DNA of 49,476 nt from a bacterium. GTDB taxonomy: Bacteria; Chloroflexota; Limnocylindria; Limnocylindrales; Limnocylindraceae. Under the pieces are notes generated by a model. That model was not told where the DNA came from and ran no database searches. It saw nothing but the letters and a program-made list of their open reading frames with translations. The position numbers and the translations under genes were made by a program. The stretch spans positions 1 to 49,476 of the forward strand of contig JBAXWE010000003.1 in assembly GCA_037128565.1 (NCBI GenBank). Reading direction: 5' to 3'. Shown here in pieces: positions 2,782 to 27,462 of the stretch (its first letter is position 1; each line of letters starts with the position of its first letter).

Positions 2782-3357
2782 ATTAAGGATCTACGCATCA
2801 ATACCCAGATCCGCGTCCCACAGGTTCGCGTTCTGGATGAAGAGGGGAACCAGCTCGGTGTCCTCGCTACCCCCGAAGCCCTGCGACAGGCACAGGAGCG
2901 CGGCCTTGACCTCGTAGAGATCGCCCCCACCTCGGCCCCCCCTGTCTGCAAGTACCTCGATTACGGCAAGTTCAAGTACGAGGCCCAGAAGAAGGAGCAG
3001 GACGCCCGCAAGCGTCAGAAGACGGCCGACCTGAAGGAGCTGCGCTGTACCCCCAAGATCGGGGATGCCGATCTGCAGACCAAGATCCGCCAAGCCCATA
3101 AGTTCCTCTCCGGTGGCGACCGGGTGAAATTCTCGGTCAAGTTCCGTGGCCGCGAGATGACCCACCCTGAGATTGGCCGGGCCATTCTGGACCGAGTTGT
3201 GCAGGGATTGGCCGATGTAGCCCAGCTCGAGCGCCCCTCCCTCCTGGAAGGACGCTTCCTCTCGATCCAACTGGTAGCATTACCCCGACAGAAGGGTCAG
3301 ACGGCCCCGGCACCCGGCACCGATGAGCCGGCCGTACCAGCCCTCGAAGGGGAGTAA
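2782..3357 (+). CDS. infC: Translation initiation factor IF-3, ATT start codon
   Basis: The frame of track ORF 3124-3357 extends upstream as IKDLRINTQIRVPQVRVLDEEGNQLGV...LDLVEIAP...PPVCKYLDYGKFKYE. ATT at 2782 follows an in-frame TGA (2776-2778) and SD-like GAGGGT. Confidence 0.95.
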   Translation: MKDLRINTQIRVPQVRVLDEEGNQLGVLATPEALRQAQERGLDLVEIAPTSAPPVCKYLDYGKFKYEAQKKEQDARKRQKTADLKELRCTPKIGDADLQTKIRQAHKFLSGGDRVKFSVKFRGREMTHPEIGRAILDRVVQGLADVAQLERPSLLEGRFLSIQLVALPRQKGQTAPAPGTDEPAVPALEGE

Positions 3358-22840: not shown

Positions 22841-24127
22841 GTGACAAAGAAAATCGCACCGATTGACCTGACGCCTGCGCCAGAGCGTGCCTTCCTCATC
22901 GCAGTTGACACCGGTAGCGACGTAGGCTGGCCAGCGGAGGATAGCCTTCAAGAACTAGCGAGCCTCGCTCGTACGGCGGGTGCTGAGGTTGTCGGCGCCG
23001 AATGGCAGCAGCGCCGACACCCCGATCCCGACACCTATATCGGCGCTGGTAAGGCGCAAGAGCTTTTGGCCGCGAAGGTTGAGACCGGCTTCACCGTACT
23101 GATCGCTGATGACGAGCTTTCGCCAACACAGCAGCGCGGCCTCGAGGAGGTACTCGGCGTGAAGGTCATTGATCGCAGCAGACTTATCCTTGACATCTTT
23201 GCCTTGCATGCGAGGACACGCGAAGGTCGGCTGCAGGTCGAGCTGGCACAACTTGAATACCAGCTACCGAGACTGACCAAGCTGTGGACACACCTTTCGC
23301 GTACGGGCGGCGGTATCGGCACGCGCGGCCCCGGCGAATCACAGCTCGAAACCGACCGGCGCCTGATTCGTGATCGCATCTCGGTTATGAAGGCGCGCGT
23401 CGACCAGGTGCGCCGCAGCCGCGAAACAGGTGCAAAGAGCCGCACCACACGCGGTGAGCCGACTGTTGCCATCGTTGGCTACACGAACGCGGGAAAATCG
23501 ACCCTGCTGAATAGCCTCGTTGGGAGCAGCGTGGTGCTCGCTGAGGATCGACTCTTTGCCACACTCGACCCAACCAGCCGCAAGGTTCGGTTGCCAGGTG
23601 GCCTCCACGCCATCGTGACGGACACCGTCGGGTTCATTCATAAGCTGCCGCACCAACTGGTTGACGCCTTTCGCGCCACCTTGGAGGAGGTTTCACGAGC
23701 CGACCTGCTCTTAGAAGTAGTTGATGCGTCAGATCACCACGCCCTGGAGCATCGCGCCACGGTACAGGCCGTCCTCGATGAGCTCGGCGCTGCTGAGAAG
23801 CCCCGCATCATCGCCGCCAACAAGATCGATGCCGCGGAGATGCATCCAGGCGAAATTGACCTTGCAGCACTCGGCGTTTCAGCGGCGACCGGGCTGGGCC
23901 TGGGCCCGCTCCGCAGCGCCCTGGAAGAGGCGCTGCAGCGCCAAGGGACTCCTGTAGACCTTCGACTCCCGTATACGGCGGTGGGGGAGGTTGAGGCGAT
24001 TCGCGCCCGGGGTGGCATCCAAGTGGCCTACGACGAGGATGCTCTCCATGTCACAGGTTTTGCCACACCCGAGATGGCCAACGATTTGAAACGGCTAAAG
24101 CGCAACGCGACGGCGAAGCTGCTCTAA
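22841..24127 (+). CDS. hflX: Ribosome-splitting GTPase HflX
   Basis: ILDIFALHA, GIGTRGPGESQLE, GYTNAGKS, LFATLD, DTVGF, NKID. Confidence 0.97.
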   Translation: MTKKIAPIDLTPAPERAFLIAVDTGSDVGWPAEDSLQELASLARTAGAEVVGAEWQQRRHPDPDTYIGAGKAQELLAAKVETGFTVLIADDELSPTQQRGLEEVLGVKVIDRSRLILDIFALHARTREGRLQVELAQLEYQLPRLTKLWTHLSRTGGGIGTRGPGESQLETDRRLIRDRISVMKARVDQVRRSRETGAKSRTTRGEPTVAIVGYTNAGKSTLLNSLVGSSVVLAEDRLFATLDPTSRKVRLPGGLHAIVTDTVGFIHKLPHQLVDAFRATLEEVSRADLLLEVVDASDHHALEHRATVQAVLDELGAAEKPRIIAANKIDAAEMHPGEIDLAALGVSAATGLGLGPLRSALEEALQRQGTPVDLRLPYTAVGEVEAIRARGGIQVAYDEDALHVTGFATPEMANDLKRLKRNATAKLL

Positions 24128-24203
24128 ATCAGGATTCCGGCCCGGCGTACACGCCGGCGGGGAGTTACAGGAGGCGCCTCCGTGCTGGCGTTCTTGCCAT
24201 GTT

Positions 24204-24231
24204 GGTTCCGATAATGATAGTTATGTGACGA
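24204..24231 (+). other. dif-like XerC/XerD recombination site (chromosome dimer resolution)
   Basis: GGTTCCGATAA-TGATAG-TTATGTGACGA has the 11-6-11 layout of E. coli dif (GGTGCGCATAA-TGTATA-TTATGTTAAAT). It is an AT-rich spot in an intergenic region at the gene-strand switch. Confidence 0.72.
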
Positions 24232-24262
24232 AGTAGGCTGGGCGCTGAGCACAGAACGTCGC

Positions 24263-24268
24263 TATCCT
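24263..24268 (+). promoter_or_regulatory. -10 element TATCCT, leaderless promoter of the namH-like gene
   Basis: TATCCT is 6 nt upstream of ATG 24275 and no SD is present. Confidence 0.55.
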
Positions 24269-24274
24269 CCCCCC

Positions 24275-25885
24275 ATGCGGATTGAGTTCATCGCCCAGGC
24301 CGGAGTCAAAATTCACACCGCGCACGGCTCAATCTTGTGCGACCCCTGGTTTAACCCTGCGTATTACGCGGGCTGGTTCCCGTACCCGCGAAATGACAAA
24401 CTTGACCATGCCGCCCTGGGTGCCACCGATTACCTCTACATCAGCCACTTGCACCGTGACCATTTCGATCCTGAGTGGCTTAAGACCTACTGCAACAAGG
24501 ACGCTATAGTGATTCTGCCGGCGTACCCGCTTCCTGAGCTCAAGGAGGCGCTCCAAGGGCTCGGATTCCATACGTTCATCGAGACGCAATCAGGCGTCCC
24601 TGTGCGCCACGGTGGCCTCAGCATCGTCGTAGAGGCCCTCACAGCCCCCACAGACGGCCCCATTGGTGATTCCGCACTCCTTATCGACGACGGCGTGGAG
24701 CGCCTCCTAAACCTTAATGACAGCCGCCCTACGGACCCTGACCACCTCCTGGTGCAGGGAGCGATTGACATCTGCCTCCTGCAATTCAGCGGCGCGATCT
24801 GGTATCCGATGGTCTATGAGATGCCGGCGAAGGCTGCTGAGGCGCTCGCCAAGAAGAAGCGCGCCGCGCAGTTCACACGGGCCGCACGATACGTGGAGAT
24901 CATCTCGCCACGAGTTGTGATCCCCTCTGCGGGACCCCCCTGTTTCCTCGATGACGAGCTCTTCCGCTGGAACGACGTGCACGACGCCGATGACTCAATC
25001 TTCCCCGACCAGCGCTTCATGGTTGAGCGCCTCCAGGCTGAGGGTCAGGCGGCCGTTCTGATGCTCCCGGGGAGCGTTGGAGAGTTCAACGCTGAAGGAA
25101 TTTTCGACGTGCAGCATTTGCAGGGTGATATGTCTGTGCAGGATGTCTTTGCGCACAAAGAGGTGTATTTGCGCAGATACGCAGCCGACATGGCTCCTGT
25201 CATTGCAGCTGAGAAGGCGTCCTGGGCCGGACCTCGTAGCAACCTGGTGCCTGAGCTGAAGGCCTGGCTCGAGCCGCTCATGGCACTCGGCCCACGTGTC
25301 TGTGATGGAATCGGCACCGCGATCAAGATTCAGACCGATGACGAGGCAATCATCCTCGATTTCCCAGAGCGGTCCGTCGTTGCCGATGATGGCCGAGAGG
25401 TGGACTTCCGGTTCACGATCCCCCGCTACCTCTTGGACCACCTGGTGCGCACGCGCACAGATGACTGGGTCAACAGCCTCTTCCTCTCGTTGCGCTTCTC
25501 AGCGTGGCGCAAAGGTGCCTATAACGACTACGTCTACACCTGGTTCAAGTGCCTCTCCACGGCACGGATCCAGTATGCCGAGGGCTTCTATGCCGAGAAT
25601 GGCCCAACCGAGGGGACGTTCGACCTGACCGGCTGGCAGATCCAGCGGCGCTGCCCGCACATGAAGGCCGACCTGACGCGCTTTGGAACCACCGATGGTG
25701 AGACGCTGACCTGCAGCATTCACGGCTGGCAGTGGGATCTGGCAACTGGGCGTTGCCTGACCTCAGATGGCCACCCCCTCTTCTCTCGACCCCAGAGCGA
25801 TGAGGCGAAGGCATTCGCCACTACAGCTTCGACGCAGCCGCCGCCAGGCCCTGATGTCGCGGCTGGCTCACCAGAGGGAGCCTAG
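24275..25885 (+). CDS. namH: MBL-fold/Rieske 2Fe-2S protein, NamH-like UDP-N-acetylmuramate hydroxylase
   Basis: HLHRDH MBL motif and C-terminal Rieske CPH...CSIH. Long stretches match mycobacterial Rv3818/NamH as I recall it: GSILCDPW.NPAY, DGPIGDSAL, SGAIWYPMVY.MP, PSAGPPCFL, DWVN..FLS.RF.AWR.G.YN, QRRCPH.KADL. Confidence 0.82.
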   Translation: MRIEFIAQAGVKIHTAHGSILCDPWFNPAYYAGWFPYPRNDKLDHAALGATDYLYISHLHRDHFDPEWLKTYCNKDAIVILPAYPLPELKEALQGLGFHTFIETQSGVPVRHGGLSIVVEALTAPTDGPIGDSALLIDDGVERLLNLNDSRPTDPDHLLVQGAIDICLLQFSGAIWYPMVYEMPAKAAEALAKKKRAAQFTRAARYVEIISPRVVIPSAGPPCFLDDELFRWNDVHDADDSIFPDQRFMVERLQAEGQAAVLMLPGSVGEFNAEGIFDVQHLQGDMSVQDVFAHKEVYLRRYAADMAPVIAAEKASWAGPRSNLVPELKAWLEPLMALGPRVCDGIGTAIKIQTDDEAIILDFPERSVVADDGREVDFRFTIPRYLLDHLVRTRTDDWVNSLFLSLRFSAWRKGAYNDYVYTWFKCLSTARIQYAEGFYAENGPTEGTFDLTGWQIQRRCPHMKADLTRFGTTDGETLTCSIHGWQWDLATGRCLTSDGHPLFSRPQSDEAKAFATTASTQPPPGPDVAAGSPEGA

Positions 25886-25914
25886 CCCCCTCCCCCGCTA
25901 GCCCGGCGGTCGCT

Positions 25915-27462
25915 CTACGACGCTGCTGCGAGCCCTTGGGCCAGCGCCACAGCGAGTTCGGTCGATCGCCCGCCACCCATAACCAGGACCACCGTCTCAG
26001 AAGTGATGGTGGGGAGGAGTGCCGCGGCAGCCTCCAAGACGGTTCCCGGTGCTGTTGCCGGGGTACCCAAATCGGCAATCCGCTTGGCAAGGTCATGCGC
26101 CGACACGCTGGTCGTGTCGAGATCGCGCACCGCGAAGATCTCTGCGACGACCACTCGGTCTGCAGCACTGCACGCCTTTGCGAGACCCTCAAGGAGGGCG
26201 GCGGTGCGGTGGTAGGTGAGCGGCTCAATGGCGAGGACGAGCTTGCGGCCAGGGTATCGCTGCCGGACGGTCTCCATCGTCGCGTCAATGGCGGTTGGGT
26301 GATGTCCATAATCGTCCAGGACAGTGACGCTACCGCTGTCGTAACGCACCTCCATACGGCGACCTACCCCTTCAAACGTGGCAAGTGATCGTGCAATGCC
26401 AGCGGCGGTTCCCCCTGCGCTCGCGACCAGCGCGGCAACGCCGAGAGCGTTTGAGGCATTATGCGCGCCAAGGATCCCAATCGGCATGGGCTGATGAAGA
26501 AGATCACAAAGTGCCGGCGCTGCAGTGGCTGCGCGTTCGGAGACGTGCTCAATGGTCAACGTGAAGGCTCCCCCGCCCAGCGGGGTTCGTACCGCTAGCA
26601 CATCGGCAGACCCTACCACTGATGTGGCGGAGGTTGAGAACGTATAGATGTTGTCATATCCACCTGTAGCGAGCAGTGCCGTTAACTCTCCGCCACCCTG
26701 ATCTCCGCTGTTAATGAATAGTGCACCAGATTTAGCTGGATAGGCTGCCCAGCGTGCAAACGTCTCTACAGCGGCAAAACGGTTGGCGAAGATGTCAGGG
26801 TGATCCCAATCAACATTCAAAATCAGCGCACGATCTGCACGATAGGCGTCAAAGTTGCCGCCGTACTCATCTGCTTCTACGACAAAGCCCGGGTCGGTAC
26901 CGAGATGTACTGGTGAGCCCGCAGGTGTGCCGAGATCGTGGCCGAGCGGACCCCCAACGAATGCGGATGGGTTTAGACCAGAATGGACCAGGGCATCTAA
27001 GACCCATCCGGTGGATGTTGTCTTGCCATGTGTACCAGCGATACCGATCAGCTGGCCGCCACGTGTCGCAGCAGCATCAGCGATCACCTGCTGCACGGAG
27101 ACGGTAGGAGCGCCAGCAGCTCGTGCCAGAAGTACCTCTGGGTGATTCGGTTGCGTGCTCGTAATTGCCTTCGAGATTGCAACGACACTCTCTGCGTCGA
27201 GGGCTGCACAGGCCTCGAGGACTGCGGGGCTACTGGACGAGCCGATCGGAATATCTGCGTGCGAGAGGATCGCCGCAGACTCTACCGTCAGCCCCTGGTC
27301 GTACCCTGATACGCGTAACCCGAGCGCCTTGGCGTGCAGCGCTGCTGCAAGTGCGGCCGTACCGCCAATTCCGATAATGTGGAGGCGTGAGCCAGGCTGA
27401 AGTGGCGCGCCACGACGGGAGGGTGCTAGCCCTGCAGCGATATCGCTAATCGAGCGCGTCAC
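25915..27462 (-). CDS. murC: UDP-N-acetylmuramate--L-alanine ligase (divergent)
   Basis: HIIGIGG, GTHGKTTST, VEADEY, DWDHPD, HNASNAL, FEGVGRR, DDYGHHPTAI, MGGG. Confidence 0.85.
   Translation of the reverse strand: MTRSISDIAAGLAPSRRGAPLQPGSRLHIIGIGGTAALAAALHAKALGLRVSGYDQGLTVESAAILSHADIPIGSSSSPAVLEACAALDAESVVAISKAITSTQPNHPEVLLARAAGAPTVSVQQVIADAAATRGGQLIGIAGTHGKTTSTGWVLDALVHSGLNPSAFVGGPLGHDLGTPAGSPVHLGTDPGFVVEADEYGGNFDAYRADRALILNVDWDHPDIFANRFAAVETFARWAAYPAKSGALFINSGDQGGGELTALLATGGYDNIYTFSTSATSVVGSADVLAVRTPLGGGAFTLTIEHVSERAATAAPALCDLLHQPMPIGILGAHNASNALGVAALVASAGGTAAGIARSLATFEGVGRRMEVRYDSGSVTVLDDYGHHPTAIDATMETVRQRYPGRKLVLAIEPLTYHRTAALLEGLAKACSAADRVVVAEIFAVRDLDTTSVSAHDLAKRIADLGTPATAPGTVLEAAAALLPTITSETVVLVMGGGRSTELAVALAQGLAAAS

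Follow-up and report, generated by a model that had tools for sequence, protein, structure and literature searches.

A putative NamH-type UDP-N-acetylmuramate hydroxylase encoded beside murC in Candidatus Limnocylindrus

The stretch of DNA analyzed in this work (the window; 49,476 nucleotides, contig JBAXWE010000003.1 of assembly GCA_037128565.1) carries, at 24275 to 25885 on the plus strand, an ATG-start open reading frame (ORF) that encodes a protein of 536 amino acids and converges on murC. The product is a full-length member of the NamH/Rv3818 family with intact metal ligands. On the basis of sequence comparison, we consider it likely (a probability of roughly 0.7) that this gene encodes a functional NamH-type UDP-N-acetylmuramate (UDP-MurNAc) hydroxylase of Candidatus Limnocylindrus. 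NamH, the product of namH (Rv3818), is described as hydroxylating UDP-MurNAc to UDP-N-glycolylmuramate (UDP-MurNGlyc) between the MurB and MurC steps (PMC6194230, PMC5964476, PMC6736417).

The assembly, in which the window is contig 23, comprises 1,146,517 bases (~1.15 Mb) in 85 contigs and is 90.8% complete. Among the loci that match the window in gene order and share 95 to 97% protein identity with it, three are titled Candidatus Limnocylindrus sp., which identifies the host as a member of this genus and not an actinobacterium; one of the three (L045) has the identical sequence to L021, a locus of the same genus. NCBI places the genus in the Chloroflexota, class Ca. Limnocylindria. In a preprint, the class is given the name "Eulabeiota" and a position just outside the true Chloroflexota, and it is said to be monoderm and to possess the usual peptidoglycan genes (10.1101/2021.08.23.457424); neither "namH" nor "glycolyl" occurs in the searched text of that preprint. 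A further locus, L043 (CAMAXG010000001.1), is from a metagenome-assembled genome titled Thermoflexus hugenholtzii JAD2; it has the Limnocylindrus order miaA-hflX-namH-murC-DUF520 and 91 to 97% protein identity (80% for murC), and its organism name looks wrong.

The namH-like gene, its product, and the adjacent murC gene

The domain order typical of the NamH family, namely, an N-terminal metallo-β-lactamase (MBL) fold, an SCP2-like domain, and a C-terminal Rieske domain in one chain of about 520 residues, is present in the window protein, as judged by Pfam, AlphaFold2, and Foldseek. The predicted catalytic MBL-fold domain spans approximately residues 1 to 235 (24275 to 24980, plus strand), its end being approximate and taken from the secondary structure in the AlphaFold2 model, and contains the motif HLHRDH at residues 58 to 63. 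The Pfam match of this region to Lactamase_B_3 was below threshold (19.3 bits against 24; residues 2 to 71); nevertheless, at the level of the predicted structure the MBL fold is confirmed, because the model was confident and its closest structural matches were MBL-fold proteins. The model, built from a 17-sequence alignment, had a pLDDT of 82.7 and a pTM of 0.83, with a C-terminal tail of 30 residues at low confidence. The best Foldseek matches were MBL-fold proteins (E value of 1.6e-10), and the top ten included the MBL-fold diiron beta-hydroxylases CmlA (1.3e-9) and FrsH (1.5e-9). No structure of NamH or CMAH was among the 26 matches listed of at least 500.

The middle domain, SCP2_Rv3818, is specific to the family and lies at residues 324 to 441 (25244 to 25597, plus strand). 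It matched PF25451 ("Rv3818-like, SCP2-like") with 149.3 bits against a cutoff of 28.2 (E value of 6.8e-44) over profile positions 1 to 119 of 119, and its coordinates were reproduced by a domain search of the whole genome. The Rieske [2Fe-2S] core occupies residues 457 to 496 (25643 to 25762, plus strand; PF00355, 35.7 bits against 20.3, E value of 8e-9), with the ligands C460, H462, C480, and H483. In a PDB sequence search, which returned only Rieske fragments and FrsH (8a90; E value of 0.016), this segment aligned with the Rieske motif of SxtT.

Comparison with homologues placed the protein in the family. In a tblastn scan of named genomes, a relative was encoded in at least 595 of 600 matched stretches, of which the best 80 were kept; among these, the mycobacterial copies were collinear with query residues 1 to 502/505 at 47 to 52% identity (E values of 1e-158 to 1e-168), and loci in this identity range were titled Mycobacterium, Mycolicibacterium, Mycobacteroides, Mycolicibacter, and Rhodococcus. 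A word-index protein search scored 8000 candidates and found 4596 proteins with E values of ≤1e-3. The 120 best relatives were 51 to 95% identical to the window protein; PF25451 was found in all of them and the Rieske domain, too, in all but one. Many relatives are named "UDP-MurNAc hydroxylase" by the JGI pipeline; the NCBI names are only "Rieske 2Fe-2S domain-containing protein" or "MBL fold metallo-hydrolase." The nearest named clusters in the Atlas combined Rieske with SCP2_Rv3818 (0.99), followed by CMAH-like clusters (0.94 to 0.98).

Residue conservation was examined across three phyla in an alignment of 128 full-length sequences, comprising 108 from the homologue searches and 20 further actinobacterial sequences, with the copy from genome G353 excluded. 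Sixty-seven positions were invariant, and the window protein retains all 67. They include H58, H60, D62, and H63 (HxHxDH), D127, D132, N148, D149, and Q170 in the MBL domain, as well as the four Rieske ligands (CxH...CxxH). Eight of 17 aligned Chloroflexota homologues (L028, L031, L032, L034, L035, L038, L039, and L040) carry an extra conserved motif at the C terminus, K/R-C-x-H/Q-C-W-Y/F-x-P, at columns ~601 to 612 of alignment A1, which neither the window protein nor the remaining eight copies in the alignment have; the motif might provide an additional Cys-based site for metal binding or redox chemistry.

On the minus strand, at 25915 to 27462, lies a 515-amino-acid ORF with all three Pfam Mur-ligase domains (N, M, and C). 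TIGR01082 (murC) was by far its best NCBIfam family, and the ORF is assigned to murC, which encodes UDP-N-acetylmuramate--L-alanine ligase. Its score of 247.1 bits falls below the family cutoff of 335.1, as for a divergent MurC. A search of its own genome found it to be the sole MurC-class gene (246.8 bits, compared with no more than 82.8 for three other Mur-ligase matches); murB and two other Mur ligases are carried on a separate contig (C30). The genome also encodes MurA (455 bits; cutoff, 392.7) and MurB (203 bits; cutoff, 144.5), and the substrate UDP-MurNAc can therefore be made. The spacer between the convergent namH and murC stop codons is 29 bp long (25886 to 25914), and a scan of 24050 to 26000 found no terminator-like hairpin in it.

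The pairing of namH with murC is conserved. In the genus, miaA, hflX, and namH on the plus strand are followed by murC and a DUF520 gene on the minus strand, and a convergent murC was present 3' of namH in all 21 loci with sequence downstream of namH (some of these 21 represent the same genome twice). Other Limnocylindrales-type genomes have the order DUF520 (minus), namH (plus), murC (minus), and of the 16 loci of this type whose downstream flank is available, 11 have murC after namH; the five without it are L048 and four from one genus (L017, L018, L020, and L047, the last identical in sequence to L018). The other neighbor of namH thus differs, being hflX in Limnocylindrus and the DUF520 gene in the remaining Limnocylindrales-type loci, and because murC was kept through this swap, the namH-murC pair has outlasted the change of the other neighbor.

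The first-pass annotation of this DNA had described a 536-residue MBL-fold (HLHRDH) protein with a C-terminal Rieske domain, whose motif blocks follow Rv3818/NamH along its length, in an apparently non-actinobacterial genome; it noted a convergent murC at a distance of 29 bp and saw the modification as acting on the substrate of MurC. The ORF, the Pfam domains, and the model all agree with that description, the collinear mycobacterial loci and the Limnocylindrus host bear it out, and the adjacency to murC that it proposed to look for in relatives was found there.

Predicted function and substrate

We conclude that the window protein is most probably a working UDP-MurNAc hydroxylase, and for this reason it is predicted that Limnocylindrus cells would most likely have N-glycolylated peptidoglycan. 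In the mechanism that we infer, where substrate, product, iron number, electron route, and physiological benefit are all predicted, MurA and MurB would produce UDP-MurNAc, and electrons from a putative reductase would enter the C-terminal Rieske [2Fe-2S] cluster, which would hand them on to iron bound by the HxHxDH motif in the MBL-fold domain. This iron center would activate O2 and hydroxylate the methyl group of the N-acetyl moiety, giving UDP-N-glycolylmuramate, to which the neighboring MurC would add L-Ala, so that N-glycolylmuramic acid (MurNGlyc) would enter part of the peptidoglycan. The NamH reaction needs O2 and NADPH. An O2-activating iron site on HxHxDH is supported by the predicted fold relation to CmlA and FrsH. 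By extrapolation from the M. smegmatis mutant, in which loss of namH is reported to cause hypersusceptibility to lysozyme and beta-lactams (PMC5964476, PMC6736417), it is plausible that N-glycolylation would, as the first-pass annotation had suggested, protect against lysozymes produced by grazers or phages.

Several observations weigh against this interpretation. In the unconstrained family tree, the window protein lies in a Chloroflexota clan, apart from the clade of the characterized mycobacterial enzyme and about 50% identical to it, and the identity of the substrate is therefore extrapolated. No NCBIfam model names the protein, which gave two weak partial matches far under the cutoffs. 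The host lineage is uncultured; in the literature searched, no report of MurNGlyc was found for any member of the Chloroflexota, and in the survey of Vincent et al., which covered Actinobacteria only, Catenulispora and Rubrobacter are genera with a homologue for which MurNGlyc is unreported (PMC6194230). The association with murC has its limits as well: in g10, a genus of the same order, murC is not near namH, and within 1.3 to 4 kb it is absent from the remaining Chloroflexota loci that were inspected (those with Ktedonobacterales or Ktedonobacteraceae in their titles among them), from an Alicyclobacillus locus, from all 52 loci titled as Actinomycetota, and from all 20 additional actinobacterial loci. 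Finally, namH and murC are convergent and thus do not form one transcript.

These points raise the question of whether enzymes of the Chloroflexota clan use the same fold and chemistry on another N-acyl sugar nucleotide, such as UDP-GlcNAc, a nonulosonate like that used by CMAH, or a later lipid-linked precursor, leaving a wall without MurNGlyc. The separation of the clan from the characterized clade, the actinobacteria with a homologue and no MurNGlyc reported in that survey (PMC6194230), and the standing of CMAH-like clusters as the next nearest in the Atlas would all be in keeping with such a role, as would a weak partial match to the NeuB family in the genome (27.9 bits; cutoff, 22.1). We nevertheless regard a different substrate as unlikely, since all 67 invariant positions are common to the window protein and the mycobacterial copies, the domain order is that of NamH and not that of CMAH, and the conserved neighbor murC encodes an enzyme that consumes UDP-MurNAc. 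Moreover, no CMP-sugar synthetase (PF02348, CTP_transf_3) was found in the 90.8%-complete genome; the partial NeuB match points the other way, and on balance this check of the sialic acid pathway leans against a CMAH-like role.

Phylogenetic position, distribution, and within-genus variation

The position of the gene in the family was examined in a tree of 59 sequences (5 from Limnocylindrus, 10 Limnocylindrales type, 15 from other Chloroflexota, 1 from Alicyclobacillus, and 28 from Actinomycetota) under LG+C20+F+G4 with posterior mean site frequencies (PMSF); supports are given as ultrafast bootstrap/SH-like approximate likelihood ratio test (UFboot/SH-aLRT). This tree, to which 20 actinobacterial copies from a phylum-wide sample were added, replaced an earlier quick tree (LG+G4) with 17 mostly mycobacterial Actinomycetota sequences. 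The Limnocylindrus copies, which share 81 to 97% protein identity, formed one group (100/100), sister to a genus of the same order (99/95), and together these lay inside a 15-sequence Limnocylindrales-type clade (100/100) that joined two Ktedonobacterales-type copies (100/99). A single 35-member clan (99/97) took in all 30 Chloroflexota sequences, along with Alicyclobacillus and 4 of the 28 actinobacterial sequences. Outside it were a Mycobacteriales clade (9 sequences, 100/100) and a second actinobacterial clade (12 sequences, 100/100). The tree is unrooted, and its midpoint fell among the actinobacterial groups with weak support (89/62). The four actinobacterial copies inside the clan (L136, L137, L140, and L141, from Actinomycetota genomes G535, G646, G554, and G526) branch in a way that points to further exchanges between the phyla.

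It has to be considered whether namH was acquired recently from a mycobacterium-like actinobacterium. The family is best known from the Mycobacteriales, its presence is patchy (4 of 35 genera in the class and 16 of 168 in the phylum), and one member of the genus lacks namH at the same site. In addition, the approximately unbiased (AU) test retained a tree in which Limnocylindrus was held with the Mycobacteriales (a log-likelihood difference of 6.96; p-AU of 0.397). In that constrained tree, however, the position of Limnocylindrus in the Limnocylindrales-type clade is unchanged, the long mycobacterial branch having moved to a place next to it; the test therefore says little about the origin of the window gene, and the uncertain element in the trees is the attachment point of the mycobacterial clade. 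Forcing Limnocylindrus out of the Chloroflexota clan cost 47.7 log-likelihood units and was rejected at a p-AU of 0.029, a modest rejection of a grouping that was named after the tree had been seen, which tempers the argument for a Chloroflexota lineage. The G+C content of namH (0.61) equals that of its flanks, identity to same-order copies is 55 to 58% compared with 47 to 52% to mycobacterial copies, and the namH-murC pair is common to other families of the order. Given the base composition, the placement in the clan, and the AU result, we consider a recent import from mycobacteria very unlikely.

The first-pass annotation had called the gene horizontally acquired and had suggested a phylogeny against Rv3818 homologues. 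That phylogeny went against a recent mycobacterial source: the window gene nests with its own order (100/100) and with the Chloroflexota clan (99/97), not with the Mycobacteriales. As written, the claim of horizontal acquisition does not stand, since the gene has a flank-like G+C content, occurs in at least 17 of the 24 other genus genomes, and is nested in its own order and clan; it survives in the sense that exchange between Chloroflexota and Actinomycetota evidently took place long ago, and an ancient transfer in either direction may lie behind the gene. The namH gene of Limnocylindrus looks old; it belongs to a Chloroflexota-wide lineage of the family and does not look like a recent import. 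As part of our preferred explanation, that of a NamH-type hydroxylase, it would have been retained beside murC through the order Limnocylindrales and lost in some members.

The distribution of the family was surveyed with PF25451 as the probe, which gave no matches in 14 control genomes. In the genus, 16 of 24 other genomes had a match and one more (G017, negative in the domain search) had the two ends of namH on two contig ends, as revealed by a DNA search, giving the count of at least 17. This DNA follow-up covered five of the eight domain-search negatives, all except G006, G007, and G018; in G002, G020, and G024, contig ends fall at the namH site, and these three count neither for nor against its presence. 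A sister family of the order had the domain in 0 of 16 genomes in one draw and in 5 of 44 in another. The domain was present in 11 of 151 genomes across the class and in 22 of 301 (~7%) across the phylum Chloroflexota, the latter count including the window genome, one genome of the same genus, and the unpublished G353. The same kind of draw from the Actinomycetota gave 31 of 301 (~10%, center genome included); hence, the NamH family is about as frequent in the Chloroflexota as in the Actinomycetota. In the Bacillota, 1 of 301 genomes was positive, namely, the center genome itself, Alicyclobacillus sp. ALC3. Its copy (L057; chromosome positions 1866848 to 1876419) is a full-length member, 49% identical to the window protein and placed inside the Chloroflexota clan, and it is likely an isolated transfer, because none of the other 300 sampled Bacillota genomes carries the family.

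Within the genus, one genome (G019; 92% complete) truly lacks namH, with no trace of the gene between hflX and murC. At this locus (L133; G019:C9:101500-107500), hflX and murC converge across about 116 bp (positions 3188 to 3305), and the order of miaA, hflX, murC, the DUF520 gene, and an HTH_25 gene is kept. Presence and absence at an otherwise identical locus offer a natural comparison for the trait.

The spacer between hflX and namH contains a 23-nucleotide AT-rich element, TTCCGATAATGATAGTTATGTGA (24206 to 24228, plus strand), which is a candidate promoter or operator of namH. The block was invariant in six aligned spacers and was retained, by BLAST, at 96 to 100% identity over 23 to 34 nucleotides in more divergent genus loci, the rest of the spacer being variable; it occurs once in the genome. 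The only promoter-like site upstream of namH (TTGCCA, a 16-nucleotide spacer, and GATAGT, at 24194 to 24221) overlaps it. The block is also present in G019 (L133, positions 3264 to 3291), which fits a deletion of namH downstream of its promoter; an element of the hflX 3' end would also fit. An RNA element at 24206 to 24228 is unlikely, since the block had no Rfam match and gave no fold signal (z of +1.7).

Each of 17 RNA sequencing runs contained only 0.05 to 0.11 of the sampled words. The evidence on expression used here comes from four of them, from four studies (labeled freshwater, marine, riverine, and lake water), whose assembled contigs were aligned to 24100 to 26100 at 90 to 99% identity. 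The contigs numbered 48, 10, 7, and 4, with depth in 24, 20, 11, and 11 of 30 bins; uncovered bins (for example, 25909 to 26100, at the murC 3' end) allow no inference. These contigs hint that namH is transcribed in nature; they come from relatives, and DNA carry-over is possible, so they are no proof of transcription. In run X2, one contig joins 24127 to 24202 and skips the 74 nucleotides between them, and in run X1 a contig ends loosely at 24202; the part of the spacer immediately 5' of the 23-nucleotide element varies among related strains.

That namH is a decaying or inactive relic without a present role, as its dispensability in at least one genus member (G019) and its reported non-essentiality in M. 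smegmatis (PMC5964476) might suggest, is scarcely credible, since every complete locus has an uninterrupted, full-length reading frame, all ligands are kept at 81 to 97% protein identity within the genus, the gene is retained in a streamlined 1.15-Mb genome, and RNA-library contigs cover it.

Implications and comparison with known systems

The fold, the family, and the chemistry were already known, and the JGI annotation pipeline already assigns the name. New here are the phylogenetic breadth of the family, its link to murC, and its polymorphism within a streamlined planktonic genus. A whole-word literature search, with subscription journals and supplements outside its reach, found no paper linking namH to the Chloroflexi or Chloroflexota, and among papers on glycolyl and the Chloroflexota none dealt, by title or abstract, with the peptidoglycan of this phylum; a review in that set treats mycobacteria alone. 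Our broader proposal is tentative, and we give it slightly less than an even chance: that N-glycolylated peptidoglycan is a recurrent, old trait of the Chloroflexota and not an actinomycete specialty, because the gene occurs in ~7% of the sampled genomes compared with ~10% of those from Actinomycetota, and that the mycobacterial gene may have arisen from a common source with the Chloroflexota lineage, because a tree with the mycobacterial clade beside Limnocylindrus, inside the Chloroflexota clan, was not rejected.

Should the Chloroflexota proteins prove active, N-glycolylation would extend over at least two phyla and to freshwater bacteria with very small genomes, which would hardly retain a 536-residue accessory enzyme that brought them no benefit. 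Activity would also bear on the resistance of planktonic bacteria to muramidases, on the reading of glycolyl-muropeptides in environmental samples, and on the question of how the mycobacterial enzyme originated.

The window protein is most similar to NamH (Rv3818 and its M. smegmatis counterpart), with which it has in common the three-domain order (MBL fold, SCP2_Rv3818, and C-terminal Rieske), a similar length (536 residues compared with 515 to 520), 47 to 52% identity along its length, and all invariant metal-ligand positions. It differs in a 30-residue C-terminal tail predicted with low confidence, in its Chloroflexota host and separate clan of the tree, and in its conserved convergent murC neighbor, found at none of the 52 and 20 actinobacterial loci; its activity is predicted.

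CMAH (CMP-N-acetylneuraminate hydroxylase) and bacterial CMAH-like proteins, like the window protein, combine a Rieske cluster with an MBL-fold iron domain. CMAH converts an N-acetyl to an N-glycolyl group on a nucleotide sugar, which is the point of likeness to NamH. Unlike the window protein, the CMAH-like Atlas clusters have Rieske and Lactamase_B domains without SCP2_Rv3818 (PF25451). The Rieske domain of CMAH is N-terminal, whereas that of the window protein is C-terminal, at residues 457 to 496, and the protein does not have the CMAH-family domain arrangement. The substrate of CMAH is a sialic acid, and the window genome, at 90.8% completeness, has no detectable CMP-sugar synthetase.

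The nonheme diiron beta-hydroxylases CmlA and FrsH have the same fold as the predicted catalytic domain, and FrsH (8a90) also gave its weak sequence match there, over residues 2 to 102. The TM-score over the whole model is only 0.33 to 0.35, and the matched parts contain no Rieske or SCP2 domain. CmlA and FrsH act on carrier-bound amino acids, whereas the predicted substrate of the Limnocylindrus protein is the nucleotide sugar UDP-MurNAc.

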